Both the position numbers and the translations under genes were made by a program. The notes under the pieces are model-generated. The model ran no database searches and was not told the origin of the DNA. It worked only from the letters and a program-made list of their open reading frames with translations. Positions 9,709 through 48,134 of a stretch of DNA of 64,000 bases are shown here, piece after piece. This DNA comes from Gammaproteobacteria bacterium (GTDB taxonomy: Bacteria; Pseudomonadota; Gammaproteobacteria; Eutrophobiales; Eutrophobiaceae), in assembly GCA_965221695.1 (NCBI GenBank), contig OZ244905.1, positions 3,392,001 through 3,456,000 of the forward strand, given 5' to 3'. Position 1 is the first letter of the stretch. Every line of letters begins with the position of its first letter.

Positions 9709-9844
9709 GATGCAAAGTTACACAAAAATATTGTAATTTAAGAAAAACTCCCTGCGATCCCAGGCTGGTGCCGTGGTTTTCCGGCGCAGCGCTTGGCTGA
9801 AATCAAAGACCTCGTGTCTGAGCTTGCCAGCAAGTTAAAACAAG

Positions 9845-9871
9845 GGAAACTCTGATTAAGTCAGAGCTTCC
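9845..9871. mobile_element. Short (27 bp) miniature inverted-repeat element with 4-bp flanking direct repeat
   Basis: CAAG|GGAAACTCTGA-TTAAG-TCAGAGCTTCC|CAAG. Confidence 0.8.
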
Positions 9872-9879
9872 CAAGTTGG

Positions 9880-11508
9880 CTAACCCCTGTTGCGCGGCAT
9901 CAGGATATACGGCCAGGGGCTGGGCATGCCGGCGCTGGGCATTTCAATCAATACCGGGCCGGTCTCTTCGAATGCCGTTTGCAAGGCCTGGCGTAACTGT
10001 TCGGGTGTTTCCACGCGCAGGCCCAGGGCGCCGAAGCTCTCCGCAAAGCGTACGAAATTCGGATTGCACAGGTCCGAGCCGATGATGTTTCCGCCGAATT
10101 CCTCCTGCTGTGCCCGTTTTACGTTGCCGTAAGAGTCATTGTTGAAGACGATGTTGACCAGGTTCAGGCCGTATTTTACTGCGGTCGCCATTTCCGTTGC
10201 CTGGTACATGAAGCCGCCGTCACCGCCCAGCGCCACCACTTTTTTATCGGGATTGGCAGCTTGCACACCGAGTGCGGTCGCGTACCCATACCCCAGGTTC
10301 CCCTGGTAGCCGCTGCTGATGAATTGCCGCGGCCGGTAAACCGGAAACCCGTACCATGACGCATAACCGACCTGGGTGATCTCATCCACCAGGAAGCCAT
10401 CCTCCGGCAACTCCTCCCGGATCACCTTCAATATTTCCATTTGCGGTCCCAGCTTCTGTTCGTATTCCTTGAACGTCGCGTTTTTCAGGGCGGTCAGTTC
10501 CTGTTTGCGCGATGGCCTGGAACTATTGTGGCGCTCCAAGGCCACTGCCAGGTCGGCTAGCGCCCGCCCGGCGTCTGCAACAATGCCGATGTCCGGCTCG
10601 GTGACGGTTGTAATCTGCGCGGCATCAATATCGATACGGACGATTTTCAGTTCGTCATCAAGACCCCATAGCAGTTGCTGATCTCCCAGTCTCGTGCCCA
10701 CGGCCAGCGCCACATCTGCCGCGCCCCAGAGACGGTGTCCGGCGCTCCATGGCTGGCTCAGGTAATGGCGGTCGTCGATGATCCCCTTCCCGCTCCATAA
10801 GGTTGTGCAAGGCGCTTGCAGGATTTCTGCGACCCGGAGCAACTCTGCGCCGGCATCCACGCAGCCATGGCCGATTACAATCAACGGTTTCTTTGCGTTG
10901 CCGAGCAGGCGCGCGGCCGCCTCGATCTGGTCGGGGTCGGCCCCGGGAGGCTCCGGGGCAGGGGACGGCGCTAGCAGTTCCACGTCCTCTTGCAGGCCCA
11001 TGATGTCCGGCGCCATCTCCAGCGCGACCGGGCGCGCCCGCCCTGAGTGCATTTCCCGGAACGCCCGGTCAACCAGGCGCGGCGCATCTGCGGGTGTTTC
11101 TATTCGTTCCGCCCATTTCGTCAGGCTTTGCAGGATGCCTAGTTGATCCGGTATCTCGTGCAGTAATCCGACACCTTTGCCAATCCATTGCGACGGGATC
11201 TGACCGGCCACGCACAGTACCCGTTCATTGCACGCATACGCGGTGCACAGGGCCGAGCCGGTGTTCAGAATGCCCGGTCCGGGCACGACCGAATAGACAC
11301 CCACCTTGCCCGTGGACCTGGCATAGCCATACGCCATATACGCGACCCCCTGCTCATGGCGGGCATTGAAGACTTTGATCTCGTTCTGTTCGTTATAAAT
11401 GGCATCGAACAGGAAATAAGTCTGCCCCCCCGGCAGGCCAAAGACGGTATCAACGCCGTAGCCGCGTAGTGATTTGATAATGGCTTCAGCGCCGGTCATT
11501 TTACTCAT
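9880..11508 (-). CDS. Thiamine pyrophosphate-dependent enzyme (acetolactate synthase large subunit-like)
   Basis: 'VFGLPG', 'RHEQ', TPP-binding 'GDGGF...N..YG' motif; no small subunit adjacent. Confidence 0.88.
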   Translation of the reverse strand: MSKMTGAEAIIKSLRGYGVDTVFGLPGGQTYFLFDAIYNEQNEIKVFNARHEQGVAYMAYGYARSTGKVGVYSVVPGPGILNTGSALCTAYACNERVLCVAGQIPSQWIGKGVGLLHEIPDQLGILQSLTKWAERIETPADAPRLVDRAFREMHSGRARPVALEMAPDIMGLQEDVELLAPSPAPEPPGADPDQIEAAARLLGNAKKPLIVIGHGCVDAGAELLRVAEILQAPCTTLWSGKGIIDDRHYLSQPWSAGHRLWGAADVALAVGTRLGDQQLLWGLDDELKIVRIDIDAAQITTVTEPDIGIVADAGRALADLAVALERHNSSRPSRKQELTALKNATFKEYEQKLGPQMEILKVIREELPEDGFLVDEITQVGYASWYGFPVYRPRQFISSGYQGNLGYGYATALGVQAANPDKKVVALGGDGGFMYQATEMATAVKYGLNLVNIVFNNDSYGNVKRAQQEEFGGNIIGSDLCNPNFVRFAESFGALGLRVETPEQLRQALQTAFEETGPVLIEMPSAGMPSPWPYILMPRNRG

Positions 11509-11644
11509 TACATCTCTCTCTGATTATTTTGCGGGAGTGGTTTCAGGACACCCATACCATTTTATTAGGTGTTATGAAAAGGCGTTATAATACCTGAAAG
11601 CAGTAATTTCGCACTCTCTAGTTCACTCCAGCGGAGTTCCCCAG

Positions 11645-12511
11645 ATGGCAGTTGTATTGATCACCGGATGCAGCAGTGGTATCGGTAAAGTCAGCGCCCT
11701 GGCGTTTGCGCGTAAGGGTTATCACGTATTTGCGGGCGCGCGCAATCCGAACGACTGTGCCGCGTTAACGGTTATTTCCGAAAACGAGAGCCTGAAGCTG
11801 GAGGTCGTGCAACTCGACGTGACCGATGCGCAGGCAGTCAGCGACGCGGTGGCCCGCGCAATTGATGTCAGCGGTCGAATAGATGTACTGGTCAATAATG
11901 CCGGCATTGGCAGGCTTGCGGCGCTGGAAGATATGACAGATGGCGATATCGACCAGGTGATGCAGGTCAACTTCATTGCGCCTGTGCGCCTTTCCAGGGC
12001 GGCGCTGCCGGCCATGCGCGCGCAAGGCTATGGTCGTATCATCATGGTGTCTTCCCTGTCGGCGCTGGTCGGCTTGCCGGGGGAGACGATATATTGCGCG
12101 AGCAAGGCAGCCCTTGAGGCCATGGCCGAAGGACTGCGGCATGAAGTGGGATGTTTCAATATTGCCGTATCGGTGGTGGAACCGGGATCGTTCAATACGG
12201 CGATGCCGGGCAAGATCGCGCAGGGCGCCGTCTGTCCGCCGGATTCGCCTTACGCCCCCCTGCTGCAACACCTGCAGCAAGAGGCGGCAGCCGGTTCCGG
12301 CCACGGTGATGATCCGCAACGGGTCGCAGAGTTGCTGGTGCGCATTGCCGCAGAGGAGCATCCTGCGTTTCGTTACCCGGCAGGTGAGCAAGCCGAATCG
12401 GTGACGGAAACCCTGCGCGGCCTTGACGCAGATGCGCGGGAACGGTTTATCCGCGCCGTAAATAATACCAACTGGTGGTCGTCAGGGGAGCAAAACAAGG
12501 AGGCAGGGTAA
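11645..12511 (+). CDS. Classical SDR oxidoreductase
   Basis: 'TGCSSGIG', 'NNAG', 'YCASK'. Confidence 0.9.
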   Translation: MAVVLITGCSSGIGKVSALAFARKGYHVFAGARNPNDCAALTVISENESLKLEVVQLDVTDAQAVSDAVARAIDVSGRIDVLVNNAGIGRLAALEDMTDGDIDQVMQVNFIAPVRLSRAALPAMRAQGYGRIIMVSSLSALVGLPGETIYCASKAALEAMAEGLRHEVGCFNIAVSVVEPGSFNTAMPGKIAQGAVCPPDSPYAPLLQHLQQEAAAGSGHGDDPQRVAELLVRIAAEEHPAFRYPAGEQAESVTETLRGLDADARERFIRAVNNTNWWSSGEQNKEAG

Positions 12512-12527
12512 TGGTATGGGGAGCAGG

Positions 12528-13265
12528 TCAATGCCGCAGTATCTGCCCCAAAAATGTCTTGAGCCGTTCCGACGAAGGATTGCCGAAGAAATCTCCCGGA
12601 TTGTTTTGTTCGATGATACGGCCCTCGTCCATAAAGATTATGCGGTTCGCGACCTGGCGGGCGAAGCCCATTTCATGGGTGACGCATAACATGGTCATGC
12701 CGGATTCGGCCAGGCCGGTCATGGTTTCCAACACCTCGCCGATCATCTCCGGATCCAGCGCGGATGTGGGTTCATCGAACAGCATGATTTTCGGTTTCAT
12801 GCACAACGCCCGGGCGATGGCTACCCGCTGCTGCTGGCCACCGGACAACTGGGCCGGGAATTTTTGCGCGTAGTCACGCATTTTTACCTTGTCCAGGTAA
12901 TACATGGCCAGTTCCTGCGCGTCTTTTTCTGTAGTCTTCCGTACCCGCACCGGGGCCAGCGCCAGGTTTTCCATTACGGTAAGGTGGGGAAACAGGTTGA
13001 ACTGCTGGAATACCATGCCGACCTCTGCGCGCACGGCGCGCACGTCCCTGTTATCCGCCAGCGTTGTTGCCAGCACAGTCAGCGAGCCAGACTGGTAGTT
13101 CTCCAGCGCATTGATGCAGCGAATAAGCGTGGATTTGCCTGAACCGGATGGGCCGCAAATGACAATCTTCTCCCCGGCCTTGACCTGCAGAGTAATGTCC
13201 TTGAGAACATGGAACTCGCCGTACCACTTGTTCAAATTGTCGATTTGAATTATGTCGGAACTCAT
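12528..13265 (-). CDS. Polar amino acid ABC transporter ATP-binding protein (AapP/GlnQ-like)
   Basis: Walker A 'GPSGSGKS', '[10 protein letters not shown]', 'LSGGQQQR', '[11 protein letters not shown]'. Confidence 0.93.
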
Positions 13266-13381
13266 GGCTCAGAGGGTTTCGGCAGCATTCATCCGGAGGT
13301 CATGCTGGAATTTGCCCACCAGTTCAAACATGCTGTGCAGGCAACCTGAATTTGCTTAAGCAAGTATAGTAATACATTATA

Positions 13382-13532
13382 GGAACCTCTGATTAAGTCA
13401 GAGGTTCCTACGATACAAGGATGTATCGTCAAAATCAATGACTATAAGGCATTGATTTTGTGAGGAAAACAAAAATCGCATTTTTGTTTTTCGTACTCTG
13501 ACAAGTCCGGGATGGACTTGTTCAGAGTTTCC
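13382..13532. mobile_element. 151-bp five-hairpin MITE-like element, copy 1, IS5-like termini
   Basis: TATA|GGAACCTCTGATTAAG...CTTGTTCAGAGTTTCC|TATA; inverted near-identical copy at 22236-22385. Confidence 0.88.
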
Positions 13533-13575
13533 TATAGTTGTCGAAAATGTACGATTGCACGAGGTTAATTCAGTA

Positions 13576-15207
13576 ATGCGAAACAAGCTGAGTCATGTAT
13601 TTACCGGTTCATTATTGAGAACTGCCGGGGCGCCAATAATTTTATTATTCATGGTTGCCTGCAGCGAGCGGCAAGCACCGCCCAATATCGTGTTCATCAT
13701 GTCTGATGACCATGCATACAAGGCGATTAGCGCATATGGACATGGCTTGAATCATACTCCCAACATCGACCGGATTGCAAAAGAGGGGGCGATTTTCAAC
13801 AGGGGATTCGTTACCAATTCGATTTGCGCGCCCAGCCGGGCTGTCGTGCTCACCGGAAAACACAGTTTCGTCAATGGCAAAGTAGACAATATCCAGGCAT
13901 TTGACTGGGATCAGCCGAATTTTGCAAAACAGTTACAGGCAGCGGGATATCAAACTGCGCTGATAGGCAAGATACATCTGGACGGGCAACCGCAGGGATT
14001 TGATTATTCTGTGGTACTGCCGGGGCAGGGACATTATTACAATCCGGACTTTATTGAAAATGGTGTAACCAGGCGTATCAAAGGTTATATCACGTCAATT
14101 ACCACTCAACTGGCCCTGGACTGGTTGGAGAATAAACGAGACAGAGAAAAACCGTTCCTGTTACTGTACCAGCAAAAAGCGCCACACAGGAACCGGAAAC
14201 CGGAAGAAAAATATCTGACCTTGTTTGATGATAAAACCTTTAAACCACCGGCAAACTATTTCGATGATTATCGCCGGCGCGGGTCTGCGGCCAAACAACA
14301 GGAAATGCGTATAGATATCCATGCCAGGTGGGGGCATGACTTCAAAATGATCTTTGCGCCGGACGGGGAGGCTACGGACCTTAATGAAGAACTCGAAAGG
14401 TTTGATGACGATCAAAGAAATGCCTGGCTTGCTGCGTACGGCCCAAAAAATGAAGCTATGAAAAGGTTGAACCTGACAGGTTCTGAATTGTCGATCTGGA
14501 AGTTCAACCGCTACATGAAGGACTACCTCAGAACAGTGCGGTCGATTGATGACGGTGTAGGCGAAGTTCTGGATTACCTGGATGAAAACGGCCTTTCTGA
14601 AAATACGATTGTGATTTACACGTCCGACCAGGGGTACTACCTGGGCGAACACGGATGGTTTGACAAGCGATTCATGTATGAAGAATCCTTCAGGATACCG
14701 ATACTTATGCGTTACCCGAAGGAAATCAAGGCAGGCGCGCAAATTGATGAACTGGTTCAGAACCTGGATTTCGCCCCGACACTGCTGGATTACGCCGGAG
14801 TGAAACCAGCGGACGGGATTCAAGGCGAATCGTTAAGAAAAATCCTGAGCGGGGAATCATCAAACTGGCGGGATGCTGTTTATTACACCTATTATGAGTT
14901 CCCTTCGGTACACATGGTCAAACGGCATTACGGAATAAGAACCAGCCGTTACAAGTTAATCCATTTTTACTATGACATCGATGAGTGGGAAATGTATGAC
15001 CTTGAAACAGACCCTGCGGAAATGAACAACGTATACGAGGATGAACACTATGCATCAGTGAGAGCGGCTATGCATCGAAAACTGGCAGAGATAAGGGAGA
15101 AATATGGCGATTCGGACGAATTGAATCAAATGCACCTGGAACGATACCTGAATGACACTTCTATGCACCATTATGAAGAATATATCCTCAAACACATCCG
15201 TGGATAA
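13576..15207 (+). CDS. Cys-type formylglycine sulfatase (S1), probable lipoprotein
   Basis: 'SDDH', 'NSICAPSRA' (CxPxR), 'GKIH', 'SDQG'; hydrophobic N-terminus ending 'MVAC'. Confidence 0.92.
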   Translation: MRNKLSHVFTGSLLRTAGAPIILLFMVACSERQAPPNIVFIMSDDHAYKAISAYGHGLNHTPNIDRIAKEGAIFNRGFVTNSICAPSRAVVLTGKHSFVNGKVDNIQAFDWDQPNFAKQLQAAGYQTALIGKIHLDGQPQGFDYSVVLPGQGHYYNPDFIENGVTRRIKGYITSITTQLALDWLENKRDREKPFLLLYQQKAPHRNRKPEEKYLTLFDDKTFKPPANYFDDYRRRGSAAKQQEMRIDIHARWGHDFKMIFAPDGEATDLNEELERFDDDQRNAWLAAYGPKNEAMKRLNLTGSELSIWKFNRYMKDYLRTVRSIDDGVGEVLDYLDENGLSENTIVIYTSDQGYYLGEHGWFDKRFMYEESFRIPILMRYPKEIKAGAQIDELVQNLDFAPTLLDYAGVKPADGIQGESLRKILSGESSNWRDAVYYTYYEFPSVHMVKRHYGIRTSRYKLIHFYYDIDEWEMYDLETDPAEMNNVYEDEHYASVRAAMHRKLAEIREKYGDSDELNQMHLERYLNDTSMHHYEEYILKHIRG

Positions 15208-15306
15208 GGACGTCCCGTTGCTTTCTTACAACATCCTTTAAATCCGCGCTCCCGAATGTAGCAGTAAATCAGGCACACCAACAAAAAACACGGAAAATTT
15301 TTCTGC

Positions 15307-15335
15307 TTGACAGAAAACTGTTTCAGCCTTAGATT
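15307..15335 (+). promoter_or_regulatory. Sigma70-type promoter for the TBDR operon with an operator-like dyad in the spacer
   Basis: TTGACA-17 bp-TAGATT; spacer contains GAAAACTGTTTC. Confidence 0.6.
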
Positions 15336-15442
15336 ATCGTAAGAATTCTCTTGTATTAATAAATAGTTGTCATTCCATCCGGTTTGATACGACGAAAAAA
15401 AATAACAAAGCATTGTTACGCGAGCCTTATATGGGGGTCCAA

Positions 15443-17941
15443 ATGAAACTTAAAACCTGTTTGTTTACGCTGCTCACCATCTCCATCGCAGTCCCTGTGT
15501 ATGCCCAGGGGACGCTGGAGGAAATTGTTGTCACCGCGCAACGCAGGGAGCAGAACCTGCAGGAAGTGCCGGTCAGTGTCACCGCGTTTACCGGCGCCAC
15601 GCTTGAGAACCTGAAGATCACCGAAGCTTCCCAGTATTTGCAGATGACCCCCAACGTCAGTTATACCGAGGATGGGCAGGTAGGCGCACGCGGCATCAGT
15701 GTCGCGATGCGCGGTGTCAGCAATATCAATACGGACGAGAGCGCATTTATACAGTCGATCGGCGTCTACCTTGATGAATTCAGTGTCTCGGCGGTGGCCA
15801 ATGCCACGCTCAACCCGCAACTGCTGGACTTGGAGCGGCTGGAAGTGCTGCGCGGCCCGCAGGGCACTTATTTCGGCCGCAACTCGGTAGGCGGGGCGCT
15901 GAATATCCAGACCCAACGGCCGACCGATGAATTCGGTTACAAGATCATCGCCGGCGGGCGCGGGTATGAGACCACCGGTTCCCAGTGGGATGTCGGCGCG
16001 ATCGTGAACATACCTTTCAGTGACAACTTCAAGGCCCGCGCCGTGCTTTATTACGAGGACAATTCCGGCATCGTCAAGAACATCGTCCCGGGTGGTGGCG
16101 ACAGTGGCCACGACTTCGTGATGGGGCGCATCAATGCCGAGTTCACCCCTTCGGATGCGACCACCATCAACGTGACCTTCATGCGCACGGATGAGGAGCA
16201 GGGCATGGATGAGACGGTGCCCTCCGGTGTCTGGGATACCGACTCGGTGGCCACCTTTGGTCTAAACCGGCCTGATGGTTCAACGTTCAGTTCGGCCCTG
16301 GATGACGGAACCGGCTTCTGGCCCCAGAACCGCGACAAGGCCGCACACACGGCGATCGGCGAGCGCAACGACAACAGTTCGACCATCAGTATTCTCAACA
16401 TCTCCCACCAACTGACCGATGAAATCACGATCAAGTCGATTACCGGCCGGATCGATACCACCAATGAAAAGGTGTTTGACAACGATCTGGTCCCTGAAGA
16501 CCTGGTGAGACGTTACCAGGAAAGAAATGCCGAGTCTTGGAGCACCGAGTTGCGGGTGGAATTTTCCAATGAGCAGTTCGACTGGATTACCGGTTTCTTG
16601 TACGCGGAGGACCGGGTGTCCCAAGACCCGTTGGACGGCGCGCCAGGTGGCGGTCTGGGAGTTGTTAACGGTGTGACCACTTCCGCAGATGGCGGCATAT
16701 CGCTTGATCCGGTGCCGAGCGGGGATCCCTCTGAATCGAGAATTGTGGATTTTGTCGGACAGCTACCTCCACTGTTTCTTTCGCAGAACACGCCAGACGG
16801 GCAACCGCCGCTTTGCCTGGGTTGCGCGCTGAGAAACAATAAAAACGACAGTTGGTCAATATTCTCCGATATCACCTGGCATGCGACGGAACAATTGGAC
16901 CTGACTGTCGGTTTCCGCTACACGGAAGACGATATCTCCGCGAGAACCGAGGAGATTAATTTGTTTCGCAGACCGAGAATCGCCGATATGCCGGTATTCA
17001 CCGCCGGCGATACCTTTGATGATTTCACGCCGCGTTTCTCCATCGGCTGGCAGGCAACCGACGATATGAGGCTGTATGGCACGGTCTCCAGAGGCTACAA
17101 GGCAGGGGGATATACACTCGATTTTGACGGAGCTGCGCCTAACATGGGTATAGTCAGAGAAAAGTTTGATAAAGAGACACTCTGGAACTATGAGATCGGC
17201 CTCAGGTCCGAATGGTTCGATCGCAGGGTGAGACTGAATATCTCCGGATTTTATCTTGAGTGGAGTGATATGCAACTGGAAACGTTTTTCTTCGCAGTAC
17301 CGGGTGACGCCACATCAAATGTGGCGAAAACCATAAACGTCGATAAGGCCGAGGCAAAAGGCTTCGAGTTGGAACTGGCGGCAGCCCCGGCGGAACGTTT
17401 CCTGATTACCGCGGGACTGGGCTACACCGATTCGGAGATAACCAGTGATAATACTGCCAGGATCAGCGGCAACCTGGACGTTTCCCTCAAGGATCACCGC
17501 TTGCCTCGTTCTCCCGAGTGGACCTGGAACATGGCTGCTGAATACAGTTGGCCTTGGGACGGCAATGAAATGTATATCCGCGGTGAGTGGATTTACCGGG
17601 ACAGCCAGTTTTCCACCATTGAGGACGTGACCTATCGCCAGACCAGCGGTGCGCCTGTACTCAGGGATACAACAATGCCTGCAGTTGGAGACAATGTTAT
17701 AGGAGTCATACCAGACCGTTCCGACGGTTTCCCGTTCCGCTCGCCGGATTACCACCTGGTTAACCTGCGCGCCGGCGCTGTTCTCAATCAAAACTGGGAG
17801 TTGAATGTCTACGTGAACAACCTGTTTGACGAAGAATATTACACCGGCACCGGCGAAAACTTCGGCCTGAGCGGCTTCCGCCTGCGCCCGCATCCCCGTT
17901 ATTTCGGTGGCAGCGTCAGCTACAGCTTCGGCGGTATCTGA
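15443..17941 (+). CDS. TonB-dependent receptor
   Basis: Signal peptide from MKLK, 'LEEIVVTAQRRE', 'RLEVLRGPQGTYFGRN', C-terminal 'VSYSF'. Confidence 0.93.
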   Translation: MKLKTCLFTLLTISIAVPVYAQGTLEEIVVTAQRREQNLQEVPVSVTAFTGATLENLKITEASQYLQMTPNVSYTEDGQVGARGISVAMRGVSNINTDESAFIQSIGVYLDEFSVSAVANATLNPQLLDLERLEVLRGPQGTYFGRNSVGGALNIQTQRPTDEFGYKIIAGGRGYETTGSQWDVGAIVNIPFSDNFKARAVLYYEDNSGIVKNIVPGGGDSGHDFVMGRINAEFTPSDATTINVTFMRTDEEQGMDETVPSGVWDTDSVATFGLNRPDGSTFSSALDDGTGFWPQNRDKAAHTAIGERNDNSSTISILNISHQLTDEITIKSITGRIDTTNEKVFDNDLVPEDLVRRYQERNAESWSTELRVEFSNEQFDWITGFLYAEDRVSQDPLDGAPGGGLGVVNGVTTSADGGISLDPVPSGDPSESRIVDFVGQLPPLFLSQNTPDGQPPLCLGCALRNNKNDSWSIFSDITWHATEQLDLTVGFRYTEDDISARTEEINLFRRPRIADMPVFTAGDTFDDFTPRFSIGWQATDDMRLYGTVSRGYKAGGYTLDFDGAAPNMGIVREKFDKETLWNYEIGLRSEWFDRRVRLNISGFYLEWSDMQLETFFFAVPGDATSNVAKTINVDKAEAKGFELELAAAPAERFLITAGLGYTDSEITSDNTARISGNLDVSLKDHRLPRSPEWTWNMAAEYSWPWDGNEMYIRGEWIYRDSQFSTIEDVTYRQTSGAPVLRDTTMPAVGDNVIGVIPDRSDGFPFRSPDYHLVNLRAGAVLNQNWELNVYVNNLFDEEYYTGTGENFGLSGFRLRPHPRYFGGSVSYSFGGI

Positions 17942-17965
17942 TTAACGGGTTATATCGTCTTTTCA

Positions 17966-17993
17966 CCCTTGCCGGAATGGCTTCCGGCAAGGG
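17966..17993 (+). terminator. Strong intergenic hairpin after the TBDR gene (terminator or mRNA-stabilising stem)
   Basis: CCCTTGCCGGAA-TGGC-TTCCGGCAAGGG, 12-bp perfect stem; no U-tract on the + strand. Confidence 0.55.
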
Positions 17994-18008
17994 CTGTAGG
18001 AGAAACCG

Positions 18009-18509
18009 GTGATACGGGTTGTCGCGCTAGCTATCCTCTTATTTTTGCCGCATACATTCAGTATCGCCGAGCAACCAGATGACATGAACACAGAGATAGA
18101 CCAACGCGCATTTGCGCTGGGTAGCTTGTCAGCCTTTGCCGAAATGGTCAGGGTCGGTGTCAAGACGTTGGCGTTAAGCGCTCCTCTCACGTCGGAAGAA
18201 ATGGACGATCTGGTGGCAGATGCAGAACACATTGCAAGGGAGGAGGGAGTATTGCTCTACCGCGAAGCGGACCTGATTGTCACCGACCTGTTCCCGGCTG
18301 ACGTGGCTGAGGGCAAGCACGTGTTGCTTATCTATAAGGGCGCGACACTGGAGACATACCTGGCCCTGAAAAAAAGGAAGTCCGAACTGATGGTCTCCGG
18401 TTCCTATGCGGGCGAGGCGCGCCGGGATATTGCCAGGCAATTCGGCAAGCTGCTCAGTTATCCCGACGCCAATATCGAAGAGCTGATAAACAAAAACCGG
18501 AACCCATAA
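18009..18509 (+). CDS. Secreted hypothetical protein
   Basis: AGGAG RBS, N-terminal signal peptide, in line with neighbouring genes. Confidence 0.75.
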   Translation: MIRVVALAILLFLPHTFSIAEQPDDMNTEIDQRAFALGSLSAFAEMVRVGVKTLALSAPLTSEEMDDLVADAEHIAREEGVLLYREADLIVTDLFPADVAEGKHVLLIYKGATLETYLALKKRKSELMVSGSYAGEARRDIARQFGKLLSYPDANIEELINKNRNP

Positions 18510-18592
18510 TTTTCCGGCAGATGGCGCATCCATTCAGATGACGCGTACATTCTCCATTCTAATGGCATCCCAGTCGGCGGCCTCTATGTTAA

Positions 18593-18621
18593 GCAACCTC
18601 TGATTAAATCTCAGAGCTTTC
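18593..18621. mobile_element. Degenerate short inverted-repeat element (29 bp)
   Basis: TTAA|GCAACCTCTGA-TTAAATC-TCAGAGCTTTC; no matching right flank. Confidence 0.65.
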
Positions 18622-18633
18622 TCTACTCAACCG

Positions 18634-19608
18634 ATGATTAATTGGAAGTGCGACGACCCGGCCAGGATCGGGGCCATCGGCGAATGCATGATCGAGAGCC
18701 GCGAGATAGAGTCAGCGTCAAGCTCTGCCCCCCGTACTCCCCGAACGTTTTCCGGTGATACGCTCAATATGTTGTGTTATATGGCAAGATTGCTGGACCG
18801 GGCCTACGCGGAACTGTTCTATATCACCGCAATAGGGATGGATGCCGCCAGCGCCGCGATGCTCGCGCACTGGGAGACGGAAGGAATCAATACCGCGCTC
18901 GTCAGGCGCTTACGTGACAGGTTGCCGGGCAGTTACACCATCGCGACCGGACGGGGAGGTGAACGCCGTTTCACCTATGACCGGGCTGAGTCCGCGGCGC
19001 GTGAACTGTTCTCAGATAATTATGCGGCAGATCTGTCGAAATCGCTGAAGGGGTTTACACTCTGCTACCTGTCCGGCATCTCGGTCGCGATCCTCCGTCC
19101 CGATGGCAGGGAGGCATTGTTGAACCTATTGCAGACATTACGCAGAGCCGGCGTGATAATCGTGTATGATCCGAATTACCGCGCAGCGTTGTGGGAGTCT
19201 GCCGGTGTAGCAAGGGACTGGGCCGGGCGCATATACGATGAAACAGATGTGGCCATGCCCGGTTTTGCGGATGAAAAAGCGCTGTTCGATGATGCCACGC
19301 CAGAGCATACATGTCACCGGCTGACCGGGCTGGGGATCGAGGAGGTGATAATGAAAAACGGTTCATTACCCTGCCTGGTTGCGACCGGGCAGGAAATTCG
19401 TCACTTTCCCGTGACGCGCCAGCCGCAGGTGGTCGATACCACGGCCGCGGGGGATTCGTTCAATGCCGGCTATATGTCAGCAAGATTGGTCGGCCGCGAT
19501 ATCGCCGCCTCAGTCCGGGCCGGGCAAATTCTGGCAAGCACGGTCGTGCAATACCCCGGCGCCATCATTCCCCGCGACGCGACCCCATCTCTGCATAGTA
19601 TTTGTTAA
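18634..19608 (+). CDS. kdgK: 2-dehydro-3-deoxygluconokinase (PfkB family)
   Basis: 'IGECMIE', 'GDTLN', 'YDPNYR', 'DTTAAGDSFNAG'. Confidence 0.82.
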   Translation: MINWKCDDPARIGAIGECMIESREIESASSSAPRTPRTFSGDTLNMLCYMARLLDRAYAELFYITAIGMDAASAAMLAHWETEGINTALVRRLRDRLPGSYTIATGRGGERRFTYDRAESAARELFSDNYAADLSKSLKGFTLCYLSGISVAILRPDGREALLNLLQTLRRAGVIIVYDPNYRAALWESAGVARDWAGRIYDETDVAMPGFADEKALFDDATPEHTCHRLTGLGIEEVIMKNGSLPCLVATGQEIRHFPVTRQPQVVDTTAAGDSFNAGYMSARLVGRDIAASVRAGQILASTVVQYPGAIIPRDATPSLHSIC

Positions 19609-19624
19609 GGAAACTCTGAACAGG
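19609..19624. repeat. Solo end of the MITE family directly after the kdgK stop codon
   Basis: TTAA|GGAAACTCTGAACAGG, 15/16 identical to the long-element terminus GGAAACTCTGAACAAG. Confidence 0.65.
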
Positions 19625-19637
19625 AGGCCTGAAAATC

Positions 19638-21002
19638 ATGCCATCACCCGAAAAAACCTGGTCGTCCAGGTTCACCTTCCTGTGCGCGATGGTCGGCGCG
19701 TCCATCGGGCTGGGAAATCTCTGGCGTTTCCCCTATGTGGCCGGAGAAAACGGCGGCGGCGCGTTTATCATCGTCTACCTGGTTATCATCCTGCTGCTGT
19801 GCGTCCCGCTGGTCATCGCGGAGCTGGCGCTGGGCCGGCGCGGCGGCAAAAGCCCGGTAATGACGATGGTCAACCTGTGCAGGGAAGGCCGGCATTCGGG
19901 TTTCTGGACGGCTATCGGCTGGTTGAGTATTCTCTCTCCGGTTATTGCCTTGTGCTTTTACGCGGTGGTTGCCGGCTGGTCGCTGGATTATGTCTTTTTT
20001 GCGCTGCGCGGCGAGTTTGTCTCCATCACGCCCGATAACGCGCAACAACAGTTTGCCGGACTGCTTGCGTCCCCCGAGCGTCTGACCCTGTGGTATACGT
20101 TGTACCTGGCAGCCACCGTATGGGTCATCGGCCTGGGTGTGCGGCGCGGGATCGAAGCCGTGACCAAGATTATGCTGCCGGCCCTGTTTGTGATGATCAT
20201 CATACTGGTGATCTACGGGCACATCGAAGGGGCGCCGGCGCGCGCCTGGCAATTCATGTTCAACCCGGACTTCTCCAGACTTACCTGGCAAAGCGTGCTG
20301 CTGGCGCTGGGACAGGCGCTGTTTTCCATCACCGTGGGCACCGGGGCGCTGCTGACCTACGGCGCGTACCTGTCCAGGGACATAACCTTGCCCGGCCCCA
20401 CCTGGACGATTGTGATCAGCGACACGCTGGCCGCGCTGTTATGCGGCCTGGCCGTGTTCACCATCGTGTTCGCGTCCGGGCTGGACCCGAGTGGCGGACC
20501 GGGACTGATGTTTGTTACCCTGCCGGTCGCGTTGGGAGCCATGCCCGCCGGCCATTTCTTCAGCGTGCTGTTTTTTGCCCTGGTGTTTTTTGCCGCGTTT
20601 ACCTCTTCCCTGGTCATGTTGGAACCCTTCATATCGTATATGGAAGACAAGGGTTACAAACGCGTTGCGATGTCGGCGCTCACCGGCTTCCTGATCTGGC
20701 TGGTCGGCCTCAGCGCGGTATTTTCGTTCAACGTGATAAAAGACTTCAAGCCCTTGTCGCTGATCCCGCTGTACCGCGACAAGAATATGTTCCACATAAT
20801 TGAATTCAGCGTGTCGAATGTGATGCTTCCGTTCACCGCGTTCCTGATCGCGCTGTTTGCCGGCTGGGTCATCTCCTCTGACCTGTTGCGTAACGAGATG
20901 GGTATCGGCAATAACCGGGTGTTCATGATTTGGAGATTGCTTACCCGTTATATCGCGCCGCTCGGAGTCGGCAGTGTCCTGGTGTTCGGGCTTGTCTCTT
21001 AA
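19638..21002 (+). CDS. Sodium-dependent transporter, NSS/SNF family
   Basis: 'WSSR', 'IGLGNLWRFPY', 'GGGAF', 'GPGLMF'. Confidence 0.93.
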   Translation: MPSPEKTWSSRFTFLCAMVGASIGLGNLWRFPYVAGENGGGAFIIVYLVIILLLCVPLVIAELALGRRGGKSPVMTMVNLCREGRHSGFWTAIGWLSILSPVIALCFYAVVAGWSLDYVFFALRGEFVSITPDNAQQQFAGLLASPERLTLWYTLYLAATVWVIGLGVRRGIEAVTKIMLPALFVMIIILVIYGHIEGAPARAWQFMFNPDFSRLTWQSVLLALGQALFSITVGTGALLTYGAYLSRDITLPGPTWTIVISDTLAALLCGLAVFTIVFASGLDPSGGPGLMFVTLPVALGAMPAGHFFSVLFFALVFFAAFTSSLVMLEPFISYMEDKGYKRVAMSALTGFLIWLVGLSAVFSFNVIKDFKPLSLIPLYRDKNMFHIIEFSVSNVMLPFTAFLIALFAGWVISSDLLRNEMGIGNNRVFMIWRLLTRYIAPLGVGSVLVFGLVS

Positions 21003-21031
21003 GGAACCTCTGACTTAATCTCAGAGGTTCC
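21003..21031. mobile_element. Short inverted-repeat element (29 bp) forming the whole gap between two convergent stop codons
   Basis: TTAA|GGAACCTCTGA-CTTAATC-TCAGAGGTTCC|CTAA. Confidence 0.82.
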
Positions 21032-21985
21032 CTAATCTCTGCGGGATAATAATTTCCTGGACAAGCCGGGGCCGCGTCCGGGTTTGCTCCAGGGACAGAC
21101 CTGTATGCAGATCCCGCAGCCATAGGTGATGCTGAAATAGGGAACGCACTTATCAAAGTCCACGTACCATTTTTCCTCGCCACGCACCAGTTGTTTGCTG
21201 TCTGAAATGGCATCGGCCGGACAGTCTATGACGCAACGCCGGCAGGCGAGGCAGAGATCCTCAACACCGATATCCACGGGACCGTCAACAGCAAGGGGCA
21301 GGTCTGTCAACACGGTTGCCAGGCGGAGGTTGGCGCCCAGCTCCCTGTTGATCAGCGACCCGTGTTTACCCAGTTCGCCCAGGCCAGCCCTGATAGCAAG
21401 GGGGATATGCAGGATGTCGGCGCTCTCGCAATATGCTCTTGCAGGCCAGCCGAGTTTGCGAATCCAGGCTGCCACCCGCACCACGGTATCAGTGATCTGC
21501 GTGTAGGCGCGCAAGGTCTCGACTCCACCCTCTACGCCGGTCACGTGTTCCTCCATGAGATCGAAATCCATCCCGTAAGCAATGGAGACGGCATACTTGT
21601 AAGGCTGTTCGATATCATGAAACTGCGCATCTTCCGTGAACGTCGTAATGCCGACTGCATCAGCGCCGAACTTGCGCGCGATTTGCTTTACCTGCTCTGT
21701 CATGGCGCCGGCATCCGTCACCTCGATACGCTTGGTCGCGATAGCTCCATCAGCTTTGCGTAACAACCACCTTGAGAACAAGCCCCTGATAAATAATCTG
21801 AATGGCATTGTCATCAGGAAAAACAGTTCCAGCGCCCACCACTCCACCTCGCGGAAACCGGAACTGTGGAATATCGGTACCGGCCGGCGCTTTTCGGTTT
21901 CTCCCAGGCCGTTGATTTCATTGCCGGATTTCGGCTGGGAACGGTATTTGAAATGGTACGCCGGTTGCGGCCAGGCGTGCTTCAT
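21032..21985 (-). CDS. Short reductive dehalogenase-like (RdhA/QueG superfamily) protein with two 4Fe-4S motifs
   Basis: 'FGADAVGI', 'PLAIRAGLGELG', 'VLTDLPL', 'CLACRRCVIDCPADAIS', 'KC...CGICIQVCPWSK'. Confidence 0.78.
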   Translation of the reverse strand: MKHAWPQPAYHFKYRSQPKSGNEINGLGETEKRRPVPIFHSSGFREVEWWALELFFLMTMPFRLFIRGLFSRWLLRKADGAIATKRIEVTDAGAMTEQVKQIARKFGADAVGITTFTEDAQFHDIEQPYKYAVSIAYGMDFDLMEEHVTGVEGGVETLRAYTQITDTVVRVAAWIRKLGWPARAYCESADILHIPLAIRAGLGELGKHGSLINRELGANLRLATVLTDLPLAVDGPVDIGVEDLCLACRRCVIDCPADAISDSKQLVRGEEKWYVDFDKCVPYFSITYGCGICIQVCPWSKPGRGPGLSRKLLSRRD

Positions 21986-22188
21986 TGCGGTTTATTCTCC
22001 AGCAAGTCCTCGAGGATGGCCTCGGTGTTCTCTTGTTGCGCCCGGCGGTAGGCGCGCCTGATCTTACGCCCCAGCGTAAACCAGAGCGCGAGGAAGGCAA
22101 AGCTGTCCAGCAACAGGGCAATATCCCGCCTGGCACGCTGTAGCAGTCCCGGATTGGTCAGGTAGAATTTCTCTTCGAAGGAAGGCAT
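21982..22188 (-). CDS. Small hypothetical protein with one hydrophobic segment, translationally coupled to the RdhA-like gene
   Basis: 68 aa, ATGA overlap with the downstream gene. Confidence 0.6.
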   Translation of the reverse strand: MPSFEEKFYLTNPGLLQRARRDIALLLDSFAFLALWFTLGRKIRRAYRRAQQENTEAILEDLLENKPQ

Positions 22189-22235
22189 AGTTGATAGAAT
22201 ACAGGATAAAGGCGTTGATAAGCATATAATGTTAG

Positions 22236-22385
22236 GGAACTCTGAACAAGTCCATCCTGGACTTGTCAGAGTACGGAAAACAAAAATGCGATTTTTGTTT
22301 TCCTCACAAAATCAATGCCTTACAGTCATTGATTTTGACGATACATCCTTGTATCGTAGGAACCTCTGACATAATCAGAGGTTCC
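22236..22385. mobile_element. ~150-bp five-hairpin MITE-like element, copy 2 (inverted relative to copy 1)
   Basis: TTAG|GGAACTCTGAACAAG...ATAATCAGAGGTTCC|TTAG; 5 differences from copy 1 by manual alignment. Confidence 0.88.
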
Positions 22386-22499
22386 TTAGCTCGTCTTGCT
22401 CCAAACTAACGGGCTCTATAGCCGGATTAACCATAGCAGCAGAGTTGAAAATAAGTCTGAAGGAAGCTGCAAGACATCTATTGTAAATGAGATGATCTA

Positions 22500-23708
22500 A
22501 TGAAAATCACCAGCGCCAAAGTCATCGTCACCTGCCCCGGCCGTAACTTCGTCACGCTCAAGATCGAGACGGACGCAGGCGTTTACGGGCTGGGCGACGC
22601 GACGCTCAACGGGCGGGAGCTGGCGGTGGTTTCTTACCTTGAGGAGCATGTTGTTCCCTGCCTGGTCGGGCGCGACCCGCGCCAGACGGAAGATATCTGG
22701 CAGTTCCTGTATCGCGGCGCTTACTGGCGGCGCGGCCCGGTGACGATGACCGCCATCGGCGCGGTGGATACGGCATTATGGGACATCAAGGCCAAGCTCG
22801 CAGACATGCCGCTGTACCAGTTGCTGGGCGGCAGCAGCCGCGCCGGAGTCATGGTCTACGGCCATGCCAATGGCGCGGATATCGACCAGACCGTCGATGA
22901 GGTGGGCAGGTATATCGACATGGGCTACAAGGCCGTGCGCGCCCAGAGCGGCATCCCAGGCCTCGCGTCCACCTACGGCGTGAGTAAGGACCGGCTGTTC
23001 TATGAACCGGCAGATGCGGACCTGCCGCAGGAAAATACCTGGTCCACGGAGAAATACCTGGATCACACGCCGTTACTGTTCGACAGGATCAGGCAGCAAT
23101 ATGGCTTTGACACGCACCTGCTGCATGACGTGCACCACCGCCTGACCCCGATCGAGGCGGCGCGCCTCGGCAAATCCCTGGAGGAATATCGGCTGTTCTG
23201 GCTGGAGGATGCGGTCCCGGCGGAGAACCAGGAAGGCTTCAGACTGATCCGGCAGCATACAGTGACCCCGCTGGCCCTGGGCGAGGTCTTCAATACCATT
23301 TGGGACTGCAAGGACCTGATCCGGGAACAATTGATCGATTATATCCGCGCCACCGTCGTCCATGCCGGTGGGATCACCCACCTGCGCCGCATCGCCGACC
23401 TCGCCGCGCTGTACCACGTGCGCACCGGCTGTCACGGGGCAACAGACCTGTCGCCGGTGTGCATGGGGGCGGCGCTGCACTTCGATACCTGGGCGCCGAA
23501 CTTCGGCATCCAGGAATACATGCGCCACACCGCTGAGACCGACGAGGTATTCCCGCATGCGTATACCTTCAAGGACGGCTTTCTGTATCCGGGCGACGCG
23601 CCTGGCCACGGTGTCGATATCGACGAGAAACTCGCGGCAAAGTTTCCTTACCGGCGCGCGTTCCTGCCGGTAAACAGGCTGGAAGACGGCACCATGTGGA
23701 ACTGGTGA
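22500..23708 (+). CDS. manD: D-mannonate dehydratase ManD/RspA (enolase superfamily)
   Basis: '[11 protein letters not shown]', 'GDATLNGRE', 'YWRRGP', 'HDVHHRL', C-terminal '[10 protein letters not shown]'. Confidence 0.92.
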
Positions 23709-25980: not shown

Positions 25981-26014
25981 TACTGCAGTAACACTGAAAC
26001 ATATGGCATAGCGG

Positions 26015-27313: not shown

Positions 27314-27344
27314 CTAATTCATCTGCGTAATCCGCTGATAATCA

Positions 27345-34570: not shown

Positions 34571-34594
34571 TATTCAGATCACAGGGATTGTTTC

Positions 34595-36979: not shown

Positions 36980-36989
36980 TGGTTATTTC

Positions 36990-38174: not shown

Positions 38175-38214
38175 TTATTTTCCCCTGAAAGTCAGTTGAA
38201 AGAGTACTAACCCG

Positions 38215-38988: not shown

Positions 38989-38991
38989 ATA

Positions 38992-39957: not shown

Positions 39958-40154
39958 ATGCGTTCCCCGTATCGTGTGGCAGGCAAAATTTTACTTGTAC
40001 TATACTACAATGTTATCGATAATCTAACCCATGTAATTTGGCAGTTTCTGCTGCTTCCGGGGTCAGAGTACAACCCATGAAAATATGCGCTGTAAGCCCG
40101 CATAGCAGTAGGTTTTACTCTGCCTGATGCTATCTTAAAACTGGAGGAATAATC

Positions 40155-40925
40155 TTGCGTTTTCAGGACAAAGTTGCTCTCGTTACCGGCGGTTCATCGG
40201 GTATCGGCCAGGCCGTCGCCGGTATTCTGGCCGGGGAGGGAGGGAAAGTCGCGGTAGTATCCGGTTCCAGCCTGGAAAAAGCGCAACAGGCCATCGCATC
40301 CTTCGATAATGCCGCGCAGCTACGCTCGCGGGCCTATGTGGCCGACGTGACCGATACCGGCGCCATCAAGGATCTTGTGCAGCAGGTTGCCACTGACCTG
40401 GGGGACATAGATATCCTGGTCAACAGCGCCGGATTGTTTTATCCCACACCAGTCGATGGCGCTACCGAGGAAGCCTTCGACAGGATGATGGACGTCAACC
40501 TCAAGGCCATGTTTTTTGCCATCGCGGAAGTAGCGCCGGCGATGAAGGCCAATGGCGGTGGCAAGATTGTCAACCTGTCATCGGTGGCCGGCGTAATAGG
40601 TGTTTCCCAGCACGCCGTTTACTGCGCGAGCAAGGCCGCCGTGATCATGCTGACCCGCACGCTTGCGTTGGAACTGGCTCCATACAGGATCAATGTCAAT
40701 GCCGTCGCGCCGGGCAACACGGAAACACCGATGAACGAACCTCTGCGTAACGACCAGGCTTTCGCTGCGATGCTGGAAGGTCTGAAGCAGGCCACACCCA
40801 GCCCCAGGACATTTACCCCGCCAACTGAGATGGCCCAGTGTGTCGCTTTTCTTGCTTCCGATGCGGCCGCCTCCATGTACGGCAGCACCCTGCTGGCCGA
40901 TGAGGGGGTCTCGGCGGGTCTTTGA
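40155..40925 (+). CDS. SDR oxidoreductase
   Basis: GGAGG RBS with TTG start; 'TGGSSGIG', 'NSAG', 'YCASK'. Confidence 0.9.
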   Translation: MRFQDKVALVTGGSSGIGQAVAGILAGEGGKVAVVSGSSLEKAQQAIASFDNAAQLRSRAYVADVTDTGAIKDLVQQVATDLGDIDILVNSAGLFYPTPVDGATEEAFDRMMDVNLKAMFFAIAEVAPAMKANGGGKIVNLSSVAGVIGVSQHAVYCASKAAVIMLTRTLALELAPYRINVNAVAPGNTETPMNEPLRNDQAFAAMLEGLKQATPSPRTFTPPTEMAQCVAFLASDAAASMYGSTLLADEGVSAGL

Positions 40926-40940
40926 GCAGCGCCCGGACAA

Positions 40941-43013: not shown

Positions 43014-43025
43014 GGTCAAGAAATC

Positions 43026-44798: not shown

Positions 44799-44827
44799 CC
44801 AAACAGACTTGGCAGCTCAACCCCATC

Positions 44828-45823: not shown

Positions 45824-45839
45824 ATATCAGATATTCAGG

Positions 45840-48047
45840 CTAGAAACTGTAGCTGATACTGCCGCCGAACCAGCGCGGCCTGTTGTAACCTGCCTCGGTC
45901 CAGCCGACGAAGTCAGACGCGTCAAACCCTACCGTGCGATGCCTCTCATCCGTCAGGTTCTTGCCGTAGAAGGCGACTTCCCAGTGCTCGTCGGCGCTCA
46001 GCCAGCTTACCCGCGCGCCCAGCAGTGTATGGTCATCCGAGTACGTGGAGCTGAAGTTGGAAACCGAGAAGTAAAAATCGCTGTTGTGCTGTATGTCGCC
46101 CTGAATGGTCAGCCTGCCGTTTGCCAGCGGGAAACTTTGCCGGGCCACTGCGAACACGGTCCATTCGCTGTTGAACGGCGGCTTGCGATCGGCAATGGCG
46201 GCGCCCGCGGCGTTGGATACCAGCACATCCTTAATCTCGAAATCCGTGTAGGCGACGCCGATACGGATATCAGTCATATCTGTCGGGCTGAAGTTGAGGA
46301 CGATTTCTCCGCCGATGGCATCCGCCTCGTTGTTAGTCGTGACCGTCGCAAAGTTCTCGAATTTGAAAGACTGGTAATCCTCGTAATCATAATAAAAGAC
46401 TGAACCGTTCAACTGGGCGCGGCCATTCATCAGCGTCAGCTTGGCGCCAAGCTCGAAGGCATCCAGTTTCTCTTCGTCATAGGGCACTTCGTTATCGGGT
46501 GGGGTGGCGCCGCCGGCGAATGGCGCGTTATAGCTGCCCGCCTTGGTGCCGCGGTTGTACCCGGCATACAGCAACATGTCATCATTGGGCCGAAATTCCG
46601 CCTGCAGTTTCCAGGTATACAACCAGTCGCCGCGCGCGTCTTCATAAGTGCGGAGGCCGGGTACTAGCAACGCGTAATCGGGTGGCAAGCTTAATACATC
46701 AGCCCGGTATACATAGTCCTTTTCCTCCCGAGTGGCGCGGAAACCACCGACCAGCGTCACCTGTTCGGAAATATCGTATTCCATTTGGCCGAACAGCGAG
46801 TAGCTGTCGGTATCCAGTTGTGTGGGAGCGTTGGTGGTGATGCCGCCCAGGGTATACAGTTCCTGGTAGGCCTGATGCTCGTTGGCTTCAAGACTCAGGT
46901 AGTAAAAACCCGTGGTCAGACGCGAGCGTTCTGATTCCATATACAAGCGCAACTCCTGGGACACCGTTTCTATGCGGGCTTTCGAGTCAGAGGTAATCGT
47001 GTCATTGGGGCCGGCGTCGTTATCCAGTATCAGGCGAAAGGTCGTGCGGTGGAAGTCGGTTACCGAGGTCAGTTCGGCCCAGTCAAGATCGATATCAATG
47101 CGGGCGGTGGCGCCGCCGACACGGTAGTAACCCCCGTCATTGCGGGCCTGGTTCGCATTGATTTCCAGGTCGTTTACGTTTGAACGCGGGGAAGAAGCAA
47201 ATACCGGGGCGACATCGGGCAAACCCGTGTCGACGGAATCAGGTATGCCGTCGGCGCCGATAACACTCATCGTGGGATAGGAGAGATAAGGTCCCCAGCT
47301 CTGGTCCACATCGTTGTAGCTGCCGGTCAGGAGGATGTCAATATCTTCGTTGGGTTGAAAGGCCAGGTGGGCGCGCACACCGTATGTTTCATGTCCGCCG
47401 AGGTCTTCACCCACGGGATGCAGGTTCTTTACCCAGCCGTTCTGTGTATCGAATATGCCGGCTATCCGCCCTTGTACATTATCAGACAGGGCCCCACCGA
47501 TGGCTGCCTCAACCTTGACGCTGTCGTATGAACCGTATCCGGCCCGAAGGTAACCCTCGGTTTCTTCCGTCGGCTTGCGTGAACTGATGCTCACCAATCC
47601 GCCGGTAGCGTTGCGTCCGAATAAGGTGCCCTGCGGCCCTTTCAGCACCTCGACGCGTTCCAGGTCGAACAGACCCACGCCGGCCGCATTGTTCGCGGCC
47701 AGGTAGCCTTCATCCATGTACACCGCCACCGGCGGTTCGGCTTGAAAGGCAAAGTCCTGTTGGGTGACGCCCCTGATCGCGAATGTCGTGGACTGGCCGG
47801 CAAAACTGCCTGCCAGGTTGACCCCCGGTGTTACCAGCGCGATATCCGGCGCCGTTTCCAGCCCCAGCCTGTCTATGGTATCACCGCTGATGGCAGTCAG
47901 CGTAATGGCCACGTCATCGGCGCTCTGGGCGCGTTTCTGCGCGGTAACGATTACCTCTTCCAGCGCGCTCTGTGACCAGGCCGTCGTGAAGAATACAATC
48001 GTCGTGATTACAGCAAGTGAGCGTATAATCAGTATCTGGTTTTTCAT
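45840..48047 (-). CDS. TonB-dependent receptor
   Basis: 'LEEVIVTAQKR', 'RVEVLKGPQGTLFGRN', terminal 'SYSF'. Confidence 0.93.
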   Translation of the reverse strand: MKNQILIIRSLAVITTIVFFTTAWSQSALEEVIVTAQKRAQSADDVAITLTAISGDTIDRLGLETAPDIALVTPGVNLAGSFAGQSTTFAIRGVTQQDFAFQAEPPVAVYMDEGYLAANNAAGVGLFDLERVEVLKGPQGTLFGRNATGGLVSISSRKPTEETEGYLRAGYGSYDSVKVEAAIGGALSDNVQGRIAGIFDTQNGWVKNLHPVGEDLGGHETYGVRAHLAFQPNEDIDILLTGSYNDVDQSWGPYLSYPTMSVIGADGIPDSVDTGLPDVAPVFASSPRSNVNDLEINANQARNDGGYYRVGGATARIDIDLDWAELTSVTDFHRTTFRLILDNDAGPNDTITSDSKARIETVSQELRLYMESERSRLTTGFYYLSLEANEHQAYQELYTLGGITTNAPTQLDTDSYSLFGQMEYDISEQVTLVGGFRATREEKDYVYRADVLSLPPDYALLVPGLRTYEDARGDWLYTWKLQAEFRPNDDMLLYAGYNRGTKAGSYNAPFAGGATPPDNEVPYDEEKLDAFELGAKLTLMNGRAQLNGSVFYYDYEDYQSFKFENFATVTTNNEADAIGGEIVLNFSPTDMTDIRIGVAYTDFEIKDVLVSNAAGAAIADRKPPFNSEWTVFAVARQSFPLANGRLTIQGDIQHNSDFYFSVSNFSSTYSDDHTLLGARVSWLSADEHWEVAFYGKNLTDERHRTVGFDASDFVGWTEAGYNRPRWFGGSISYSF

Positions 48048-48089
48048 TTTACTCTCCCACGTAAGTTGTATCGATATAAACTGTTTTAG

Positions 48090-48118
48090 GGAACCTCTGA
48101 TTAAGTCTCAGAGCTTCC
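48090..48118. mobile_element. Short inverted-repeat element (29 bp) with TTAG flanking direct repeat
   Basis: TTAG|GGAACCTCTGA-TTAAGTC-TCAGAGCTTCC|TTAG. Confidence 0.85.
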
Positions 48119-48134
48119 TTAGTTACCTTGGTTG

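Follow-up and report, generated by a model that had tools for sequence, protein, structure and literature searches.

Palindromes of 27-29 bp with target duplications in a gammaproteobacterial genome are probably, for the most part, collapsed IS5-group MITEs

Long terminal repeat (LTR) retrotransposons lose their interior by recombination between direct repeats, and the solo LTR that remains keeps the target duplication. [quoted passage not shown] Repetitive extragenic palindromic (REP) sequences make, to our knowledge, no target duplication. A Paramecium study describes short internal eliminated sequences as decayed transposons that shrank over time to a minimal size of about 26-30 bp with their boundaries kept (PMC3464196), and a study of E. 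coli insertion sequences (ISs) reports that IS5 target duplications follow YTAR and that one excision was seen among 857 IS events (PMC5009759). Here we describe 27-29-bp palindromes, each made of two back-to-back IS5-like ends, in a 64,000-nucleotide stretch of a gammaproteobacterial genome of the family Eutrophobiaceae (assembly GCA_965221695.1, contig OZ244905.1, positions 3,392,001 to 3,456,000). The whole stretch is called the window, its own genome is G000, and other G numbers denote the related genomes that were compared with it. We conclude that the palindromes are probably, in the main, collapsed 151-bp MITEs that kept their ends and their target-site duplication, and hence decay products of an IS5-group lineage; the shortest transposons known they are probably not.

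The lineage resembles IS5 of E. coli and other IS5-group ISs (NF033581) and their MITEs in its transposase profile match, its 4-bp YTAR-type duplication and its shared ends, and it is an IS5-group MITE family of the ordinary kind. What is new is the one-step collapse to a duplication-flanked palindrome, together with the evidence for it. In contrast to usual IS5 MITEs, this one has its terminal repeat a second time, inverted, at each end and is therefore prone to collapse; the usual description of IS5 MITEs is without a 27-29-bp end product that keeps the duplication. By analogy with solo LTRs, the interior would be lost between direct repeats and the target duplication retained on a solo hairpin, but here the direct repeats are 11 nt long, are supplied by the inverted terminal-repeat copy in hairpin 1, and would leave a palindromic remnant. 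Like Correia elements, the palindromes are non-coding, bounded by inverted repeats and flanked by duplications, but only a 5-7-nt loop separates their ends. With REP sequences and bacterial interspersed mosaic elements, and the REP-associated tyrosine transposases (RAYTs) that accompany them, they share size, copy number, intergenic position and hairpin potential. They differ from these in their target duplications and IS5-type ends and in that no RAYT gene was found in G000, so membership of that class is unsupported. The Paramecium sequences differ in being eukaryotic and in having boundaries kept by a domesticated excisase (PMC3464196), whereas nothing suggests that the remnants described here are maintained. 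A literature search, with ISfinder and subscription journals outside its reach, found no description of bacterial palindromes that are flanked by target-site duplications and made solely of inverted-repeat ends, which does not imply that none exists.

Hairpin census and traces of a probable collapse

G000 is a single contig of 3,539,060 bp with 55% G+C. The first-pass annotation, made from the letters of the window, had expected many more family members genome-wide, and this was borne out by 185 + 174 exact arms in G000. Measured from each arm to the next arm of opposite orientation, the spacings cluster sharply at 27 bp (123 cases), 29 bp (47) and 151 bp (26), with a few cases of 41-45 bp. 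There are 184 hairpins of 26-32 bp, 94 of which are followed by hairpin 2 of a long element while 90 stand alone; the latter we call solo hairpins. Only one of the 90 lies in a frame that is open for 300 nt on both sides. Full 151-bp MITE copies number 83, 62 with a perfect 4-bp duplication and 15 with 3 of 4 positions matching.

The 4-bp direct flanks of the solo hairpins, taken at offset 0, were identical in 45 of 90 cases and agreed at 3 of 4 positions in a further 25. In the other registers, tested from offset -3 to +5, no more than 2 of the 90 had a perfect flank match, and in 2000 permutations of the right flanks the number of perfect matches averaged 10.9 and never exceeded 19. Among the left flanks that are not themselves palindromic, 24 recur on the right as direct repeats and one as an inverted repeat, so the flanks are target-site duplications and not extensions of the palindrome. 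Both the matching above chance that the first-pass annotation had called for and its reading of the repeats as target-site duplications were thus upheld, and on the same 24 to 1 ratio we reject a snap-back (inverted duplication) origin. The perfectly duplicated words were TTAA (20), CTAA (6), TTAG (4), CTTA (2), CAAG (2) and eleven words found once each.

We propose that three tiers of one IS5-group lineage are represented. The first is a 1149-bp IS that encodes a 313-amino acid DDE transposase and makes a 4-bp duplication, mostly of TTAA, CTAA or TTAG. The second is the non-coding 151-bp MITE, which has both IS ends and may be moved in trans, and the third the solo hairpins of 27-29 bp. Hairpin 1 of the MITE is built from one terminal repeat of 11 nt, a loop of 5 nt and the repeat again in inverted orientation. 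The terminal 11 nt of the far end, at a distance of 124 bp, therefore repeat the inner arm in direct orientation. A deletion from one of these 11-nt direct repeats to the other would remove the middle of the MITE. The remnant would comprise the outer arm, the loop and a hybrid arm, 27 bp in all, with the original 4-bp duplication still on both sides. Replication slippage or recombination could produce such a deletion, as could gap repair interrupted after a transposase cut.

Orthologous sites in the relative G013, which is 93-99% identical to G000 in aligned DNA, caught such a change at two places; the comparison covered 1.16 Mb of G013. At G000 1250753-1250903 a 151-bp MITE corresponds to a 27-bp hairpin in G013, with TTGA flanks in both genomes, and the left arm of the 27-bp copy has the far-end allele. 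The second pair is reversed between the genomes: G013 has 150 bp at C1:477713-477862 and G000 has 27 bp at 3195202-3195228, with CTAA on both sides. A partial case was found at G000 1213327, where 151 bp face 67 bp after an 84-bp internal deletion. Both the direction of change, from 151 to 27 bp, and the manner of deletion are inferred.

The arms provided a further line of evidence, since position 5 of the arm is polymorphic and the predicted remnant would combine arms from the two ends of the MITE. Among 86 full MITEs, the alleles at the outer arm, inner arm and far end were C,C,A in 54, A,A,G in 15 and C,C,G in 5, and the two arms of hairpin 1 inside MITEs matched in 84 of 94 copies (C/C 69, A/A 15). 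The arms of the 90 solo hairpins were C/C in 25, C/G in 16, C/A in 14, A/G in 12, A/A in 5 and other combinations in 18, such that 72 of 90 have one of the predicted collapse products (C/C, C/A, A/A, A/G or C/G). Heteroallelic arms that pair a hairpin-1 allele with a far-end allele were present in 42 of 90 solo hairpins, compared with 4 of the 94 that lie within MITEs (Fisher p = 7e-12). If the crossover may fall anywhere in the 11-nt repeat, the far-end allele should, by our estimate, be retained in a proportion of about 0.6; it was retained in 42 of the 72 classifiable solo hairpins (binomial p = 0.81). The first-pass annotation had left a choice between extraordinarily short MITEs and collapsed insertions that kept their duplication. 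With two orthologous conversions from 151 to 27 bp and chimeric arms, the second of these is the one supported, and self-moving MITEs of such a size are not needed, though we keep them as a minority reading.

Age provides additional support, as perfect duplications are less frequent around solo hairpins (45 of 90) than around MITEs (62 of 83; p = 0.001). Orthologous hairpins of G000 and G013 differ by 2 bp (27 vs 29) in three cases (L243, L244 and the copy at window position 9845), which looks like dinucleotide slippage beside the loop.

The IS5-group partner and turnover among relatives

The profile NF033581 scored above its cut-off in 6 of the 23 genomes of the genus. In congener G006, an element of 1149 bp (L272) has TTAA on both sides and an intact 313-amino acid open reading frame (ORF) that matches NF033581 with 315 bits and has no stops. 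The first 16 nt of one end are the hairpin arm plus loop, polymorphic position 5 excepted, and the other end agrees at 17 of 19 nt with the MITE's far end. G019 and G038 have broken copies with ends of the L272 type, G020 has a 461-bp deletion derivative and G011 an end fragment. The L272 transposase is 51-55% identical to annotated IS5-family transposases on plasmids, and the IS is less than 60% identical to any plasmid-borne copy. The attribution to IS5 made in the first-pass annotation was therefore right, given an IS5-group IS with the same ends and a TTAA duplication in congeners and duplications that are mostly TTAA, CTAA and TTAG. The transposase gene bounded by these ends that it had suggested looking for exists in congener G006, but G000 itself has fragments only.

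In G000, the DDE_Tnp_1 profile (PF01609) gave no matches, and a search for a full-length IS among hairpin-type end pairs 400-3500 bp apart gave no consistent length class, most pairs being two separate hairpins. The 1149-bp IS is represented there by three short fragments of 61-110 bp that are 76-89% identical to it (1594572-1594654, 2325192-2325252 and 3123428-3123536), one of them the terminal 61 bp of the IS. Together with an IS-like solo end at window position 63125, they indicate that the IS was once present in G000 and has since decayed. A 1287-bp IS5-group IS from G023 and G039 was rejected as the partner: beyond the first 9 nt its ends no longer agree with the hairpin arm, and its real termini are set one base further outward, so that it counts as a cousin rather than the source. 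It has many copies (L273, L275 and similar loci in G023 and G039), with the 4-bp duplication one base beyond the shared motif.

G000 has 102 exact hairpins; counts in the 18 congeners range from 0 to 67, with at least one hairpin in 12 of them. The MITE core was found in 11 of these 12; among the six congeners that have no hairpins, it was absent from three and gave 1-6 weaker matches in the other three. The exact 27-mer occurs at no fewer than 93 places in many uncultured Gammaproteobacteria. Among the 93 matches listed, 67 are followed by a recognisable hairpin 2 and several of the other 26 by a variant hairpin 2; six of these 26 have 4-bp flanks that repeat perfectly and resemble true solo hairpins. 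Many contigs of one short-read genome bin (L017, L018, L021, L031, L041 and others) stop about 100 bp from the hairpin. A MITE that interrupts the assembly would have this effect, and copy numbers counted in bins of this kind are therefore too low.

Other forms of decay were also observed. Microhomology deletion also removes ends and leaves the other end solo, as at L263, where a 7-nt repeat was involved. The class of 41-45 bp has five copies in G000, and its form is that expected of the reciprocal deletion at the other MITE end, to which two examples would correspond. In G000 at 93894, a long MITE is inserted at TTAA within the loop of an older hairpin, and at 40568, 605441 and 927551 several hairpins stand back to back with one YTAR word in common, so the elements supply one another with targets. 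Terminal inverted repeats of about 19 nt mark a second MITE family, which is present at G000:3195233-3195619 and as a fragment at window 63178-63197. It has 18 paired copies (eight of 239 bp, four of 311-315 bp, two of 387 bp and others), mostly with YTAR duplications. Of its 50 outer ends, 4 are no more than 30 bp from a family-1 hairpin, compared with 114 of 20000 random positions, and two of the four share the duplication of the hairpin.

Turnover between G000 and G013 was tabulated in both directions. The compared blocks contain 32 MITEs of G000, 20 of them usable: nine have the same length in G013, four face clean empty sites (differences of 153-155 bp), one is collapsed to 27 bp, one is cut to 67 bp and five are complex. 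Twelve of the 16 MITEs of G013 were usable, of which eight are the same in G000, one faces an empty site, one faces a 27-bp hairpin and two are complex. The blocks also contain 50 solo hairpins of G000; among the 33 usable ones, 15 differ by 0-1 bp, four have small indels, 12 are complex and two face possible empty sites in poorly conserved flanks. Conversely, 47 hairpins of G013 were examined and 42 were usable, with one clean empty site in G000 (L267) and one probable (L225, 33 bp). The L267 difference is 31 bp, that is, 27 bp plus TTAA, in flanks that are 97-98% identical. Empty sites in relatives, which the first-pass annotation had proposed to look for, thus exist for the MITE (the window copy at 13382 in G013, the four clean cases, and contig joints from runs X1 and X2) and, for hairpins, cleanly at L267 and probably at L225. 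They are common for the MITE and rare for hairpins, which supports collapse, and by a rough estimate the few hairpin polymorphisms fit insertion followed by collapse at the observed frequencies of the steps. Length differences at L234, L231 and L266 turned out to be replaced or decayed sequence and neither empty sites nor conversions, and at 3098711 the match was limited to a poorly conserved, non-colinear place.

Copies in the window

Every copy that the first-pass annotation had located in the window was found in its place, and its equation of the 27-29-bp unit with hairpin 1 of the long element proved correct for the copies at 13382-13532 and 22236-22385. With up to one mismatch, the 11-nt arm occurs 16 times in the window against 1.29 expected, and none of 100 shuffles reached 16. 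The 151-bp elements fold as five hairpins (-70.6 kcal/mol, z = -10.6).

Three intact solo hairpins are present, none with an assigned strand, and two of the three have hybrid arms. The 27-bp hairpin at 9845-9871 (9841..9875 with flanks) has a CAAG duplication on both sides and A/G arms of the chimeric type; its ortholog in G013 is 29 bp long and is without 6 bp of the left flank. The 29-bp hairpin at 48090-48118 (48086..48122 with flanks) has a TTAG duplication and C/G arms, also of the chimeric type. The 29-bp hairpin at 21003-21031 (20999..21035 with flanks) has the flanks TTAA and CTAA, and the stop codon of the ORF at 19638-21002 falls in its left flank. Its G013 ortholog has CTAA on both sides, and the mismatch in G000 is therefore a later substitution. 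Among the joints listed for contigs on window 9000-23500, none runs across an in-window hairpin.

The full five-hairpin MITE at 13382-13532 (13378..13536 with flanks) lies on the + strand with hairpin 1 on the left and has a TATA duplication. The matching site in G013 is empty, with a single TATA, and contigs of runs X1 and X2 join across the element, skipping 155 bp with 4 shared letters. The second MITE, 150 bp at 22236-22385 (22232..22389 with flanks), lies on the - strand with hairpin 1 on the right and has a TTAG duplication; it is without one base at arm position 5 of its far end and is also present in G013. At window 22268-22341, X1 and X2 contigs have a MITE copy that misses 72 bp internally, at about single-copy depth in X2, and this copy is another intermediate decay form. 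Congener G039 has nothing that corresponds to window 20990-22501, a stretch with an ORF (21032-21985) between the hairpin at 21003 and the 22236 MITE; according to alignment pieces, the genes on either side are 19 bp apart there.

The remaining copies are incomplete. A degenerate 29-bp hairpin with worn arms lies at 18593..18621 (no strand assigned), its arm motif eroded. Compared with window 18560-18660, G013 (C4:50474-51285) has about 810 extra bp, consisting of a gene-sized stretch and a disrupted long MITE. Hairpin 1 of this MITE aligns with the window copy at 18593, and G000 keeps the worn hairpin only. A solo end of the far-end type (end B) at 19609..19623 on the + strand is cut off after about 15 nt and follows a TAA stop just upstream of the next ORF start; a microhomology deletion like that at L263 explains it. 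The solo end at 63125..63143, also on the + strand and after a TAA stop, is instead IS-like: it resembles the terminal repeat that bounds the 1149-bp IS, with the same first 16-19 nt as L272 has at its left end.

Alternative origins and significance

Several observations weigh against an origin of the solo hairpins by collapse. L267 is a clean presence or absence of exactly 27 + 4 bp and provides the most straightforward evidence for the insertion of 27 bp; collapse would need a pair of events within one short branch, or else an exact excision. Of the arm combinations of the 90 solo hairpins, 18 fall outside those predicted from the three main MITE types. Solo hairpins are also richer in the 29-bp form (35 of 90, compared with 12 of 94 inside MITEs; p = 8e-5), which collapse alone does not predict, though changes between 27 and 29 bp do occur at orthologous sites. 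Direct conversions number only two, and their direction was read without outgroup rooting. In addition, both G000 and G013 were apparently assembled from environmental DNA, and some length differences could reflect population mixtures; sites that gave no usable comparison amount to 12 of 32 for G000 MITEs, 17 of 50 for G000 hairpins and 5 of 47 for G013 hairpins. Some of these points would be accounted for if the palindrome were itself a working non-autonomous transposon, whose 11-16-nt ends are recognised by an IS5-type transposase and which inserts at YTAR with a 4-bp duplication. On this reading, transposition and not decay would have produced most of the solo copies. Both ends are complete, half of the copies have perfect duplications, L267 differs between genomes by precisely one such unit at a single TTAA, two or three further differences are hairpin-sized, and the excess of the 29-bp form looks as if a sub-lineage had multiplied. 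Mobile copies of hairpin 1 should, however, have matching arms, as the hairpins inside MITEs mostly do, yet nearly half of the solo hairpins have the far-end allele on one arm, and in the proportion that the crossover model predicts. Two orthologous sites have 151 and 27 bp in place, and hairpins are polymorphic less often than MITEs. Two 16-nt transposase sites would also overlap within 27 bp, with no DNA left to bend for the pairing of ends. We therefore regard self-mobility as an unlikely origin of most copies. A combined scheme, in which some copies such as L267 are true insertions, the palindromes are still substrates of an IS5-type transposase and the collapse of hairpin-ended MITEs is a general, RAYT-independent source of REP-like sequences, seems to us quite doubtful; if the palindromes were still substrates, they would be the shortest DDE-mobilised elements known.

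It is also conceivable that the likeness to IS5 is coincidental and that the hairpins are REP-type palindromes spread by a RAYT (an IS200/IS605-like tyrosine transposase), or terminators or mRNA stabilisers selected by the host. They are short, intergenic and palindromic, have about 100 copies and stable predicted folds (-10.8 to -17.4 kcal/mol), and 18 of 90 adjoin the stop codon of an ORF of at least 100 codons. The Y1_Tnp profile (PF01797) had no matches in G000 while control genomes responded, and the direct 4-bp YTAR-type duplications and the ends held in common with an IS5-group IS argue against a REP. Of 3000 random YTAR sites, 358 coincide with the stop codon of such an ORF, and the association of hairpins with stop codons thus mostly follows from the target word. 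The first-pass annotation had suggested that collapsed copies act as REP-like mRNA hairpins, and this found no support: only 8 of 90 solo hairpins have, on one strand or the other, at least four consecutive T no more than 10 nt from the stem, which speaks against terminators, and position 5 of the stem is mismatched in the 42 heteroallelic copies (C/A, C/G or A/G). No Rfam family matched in window 9000-23500. Nothing points to a selected role for the solo hairpins, which look like neutral intergenic relics, and we consider an origin as REPs or as host-selected signals highly improbable.

Collapse of 151-bp MITEs thus remains our preferred account of the solo hairpins. The orthologous before-and-after pairs and the allele signature indicate that a single step can reduce a bacterial MITE to no more than a palindrome with its duplication retained. 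Such relics can pass for REP-like elements or for ultra-short transposons, and 4-bp flanks together with hybrid arms are simple marks by which collapsed MITEs can be recognised. In G000 the IS is extinct and about 170 of its derivatives remain, and the 151-bp MITE is still, at some sites, present in only one of two close relatives, G000 and G013.

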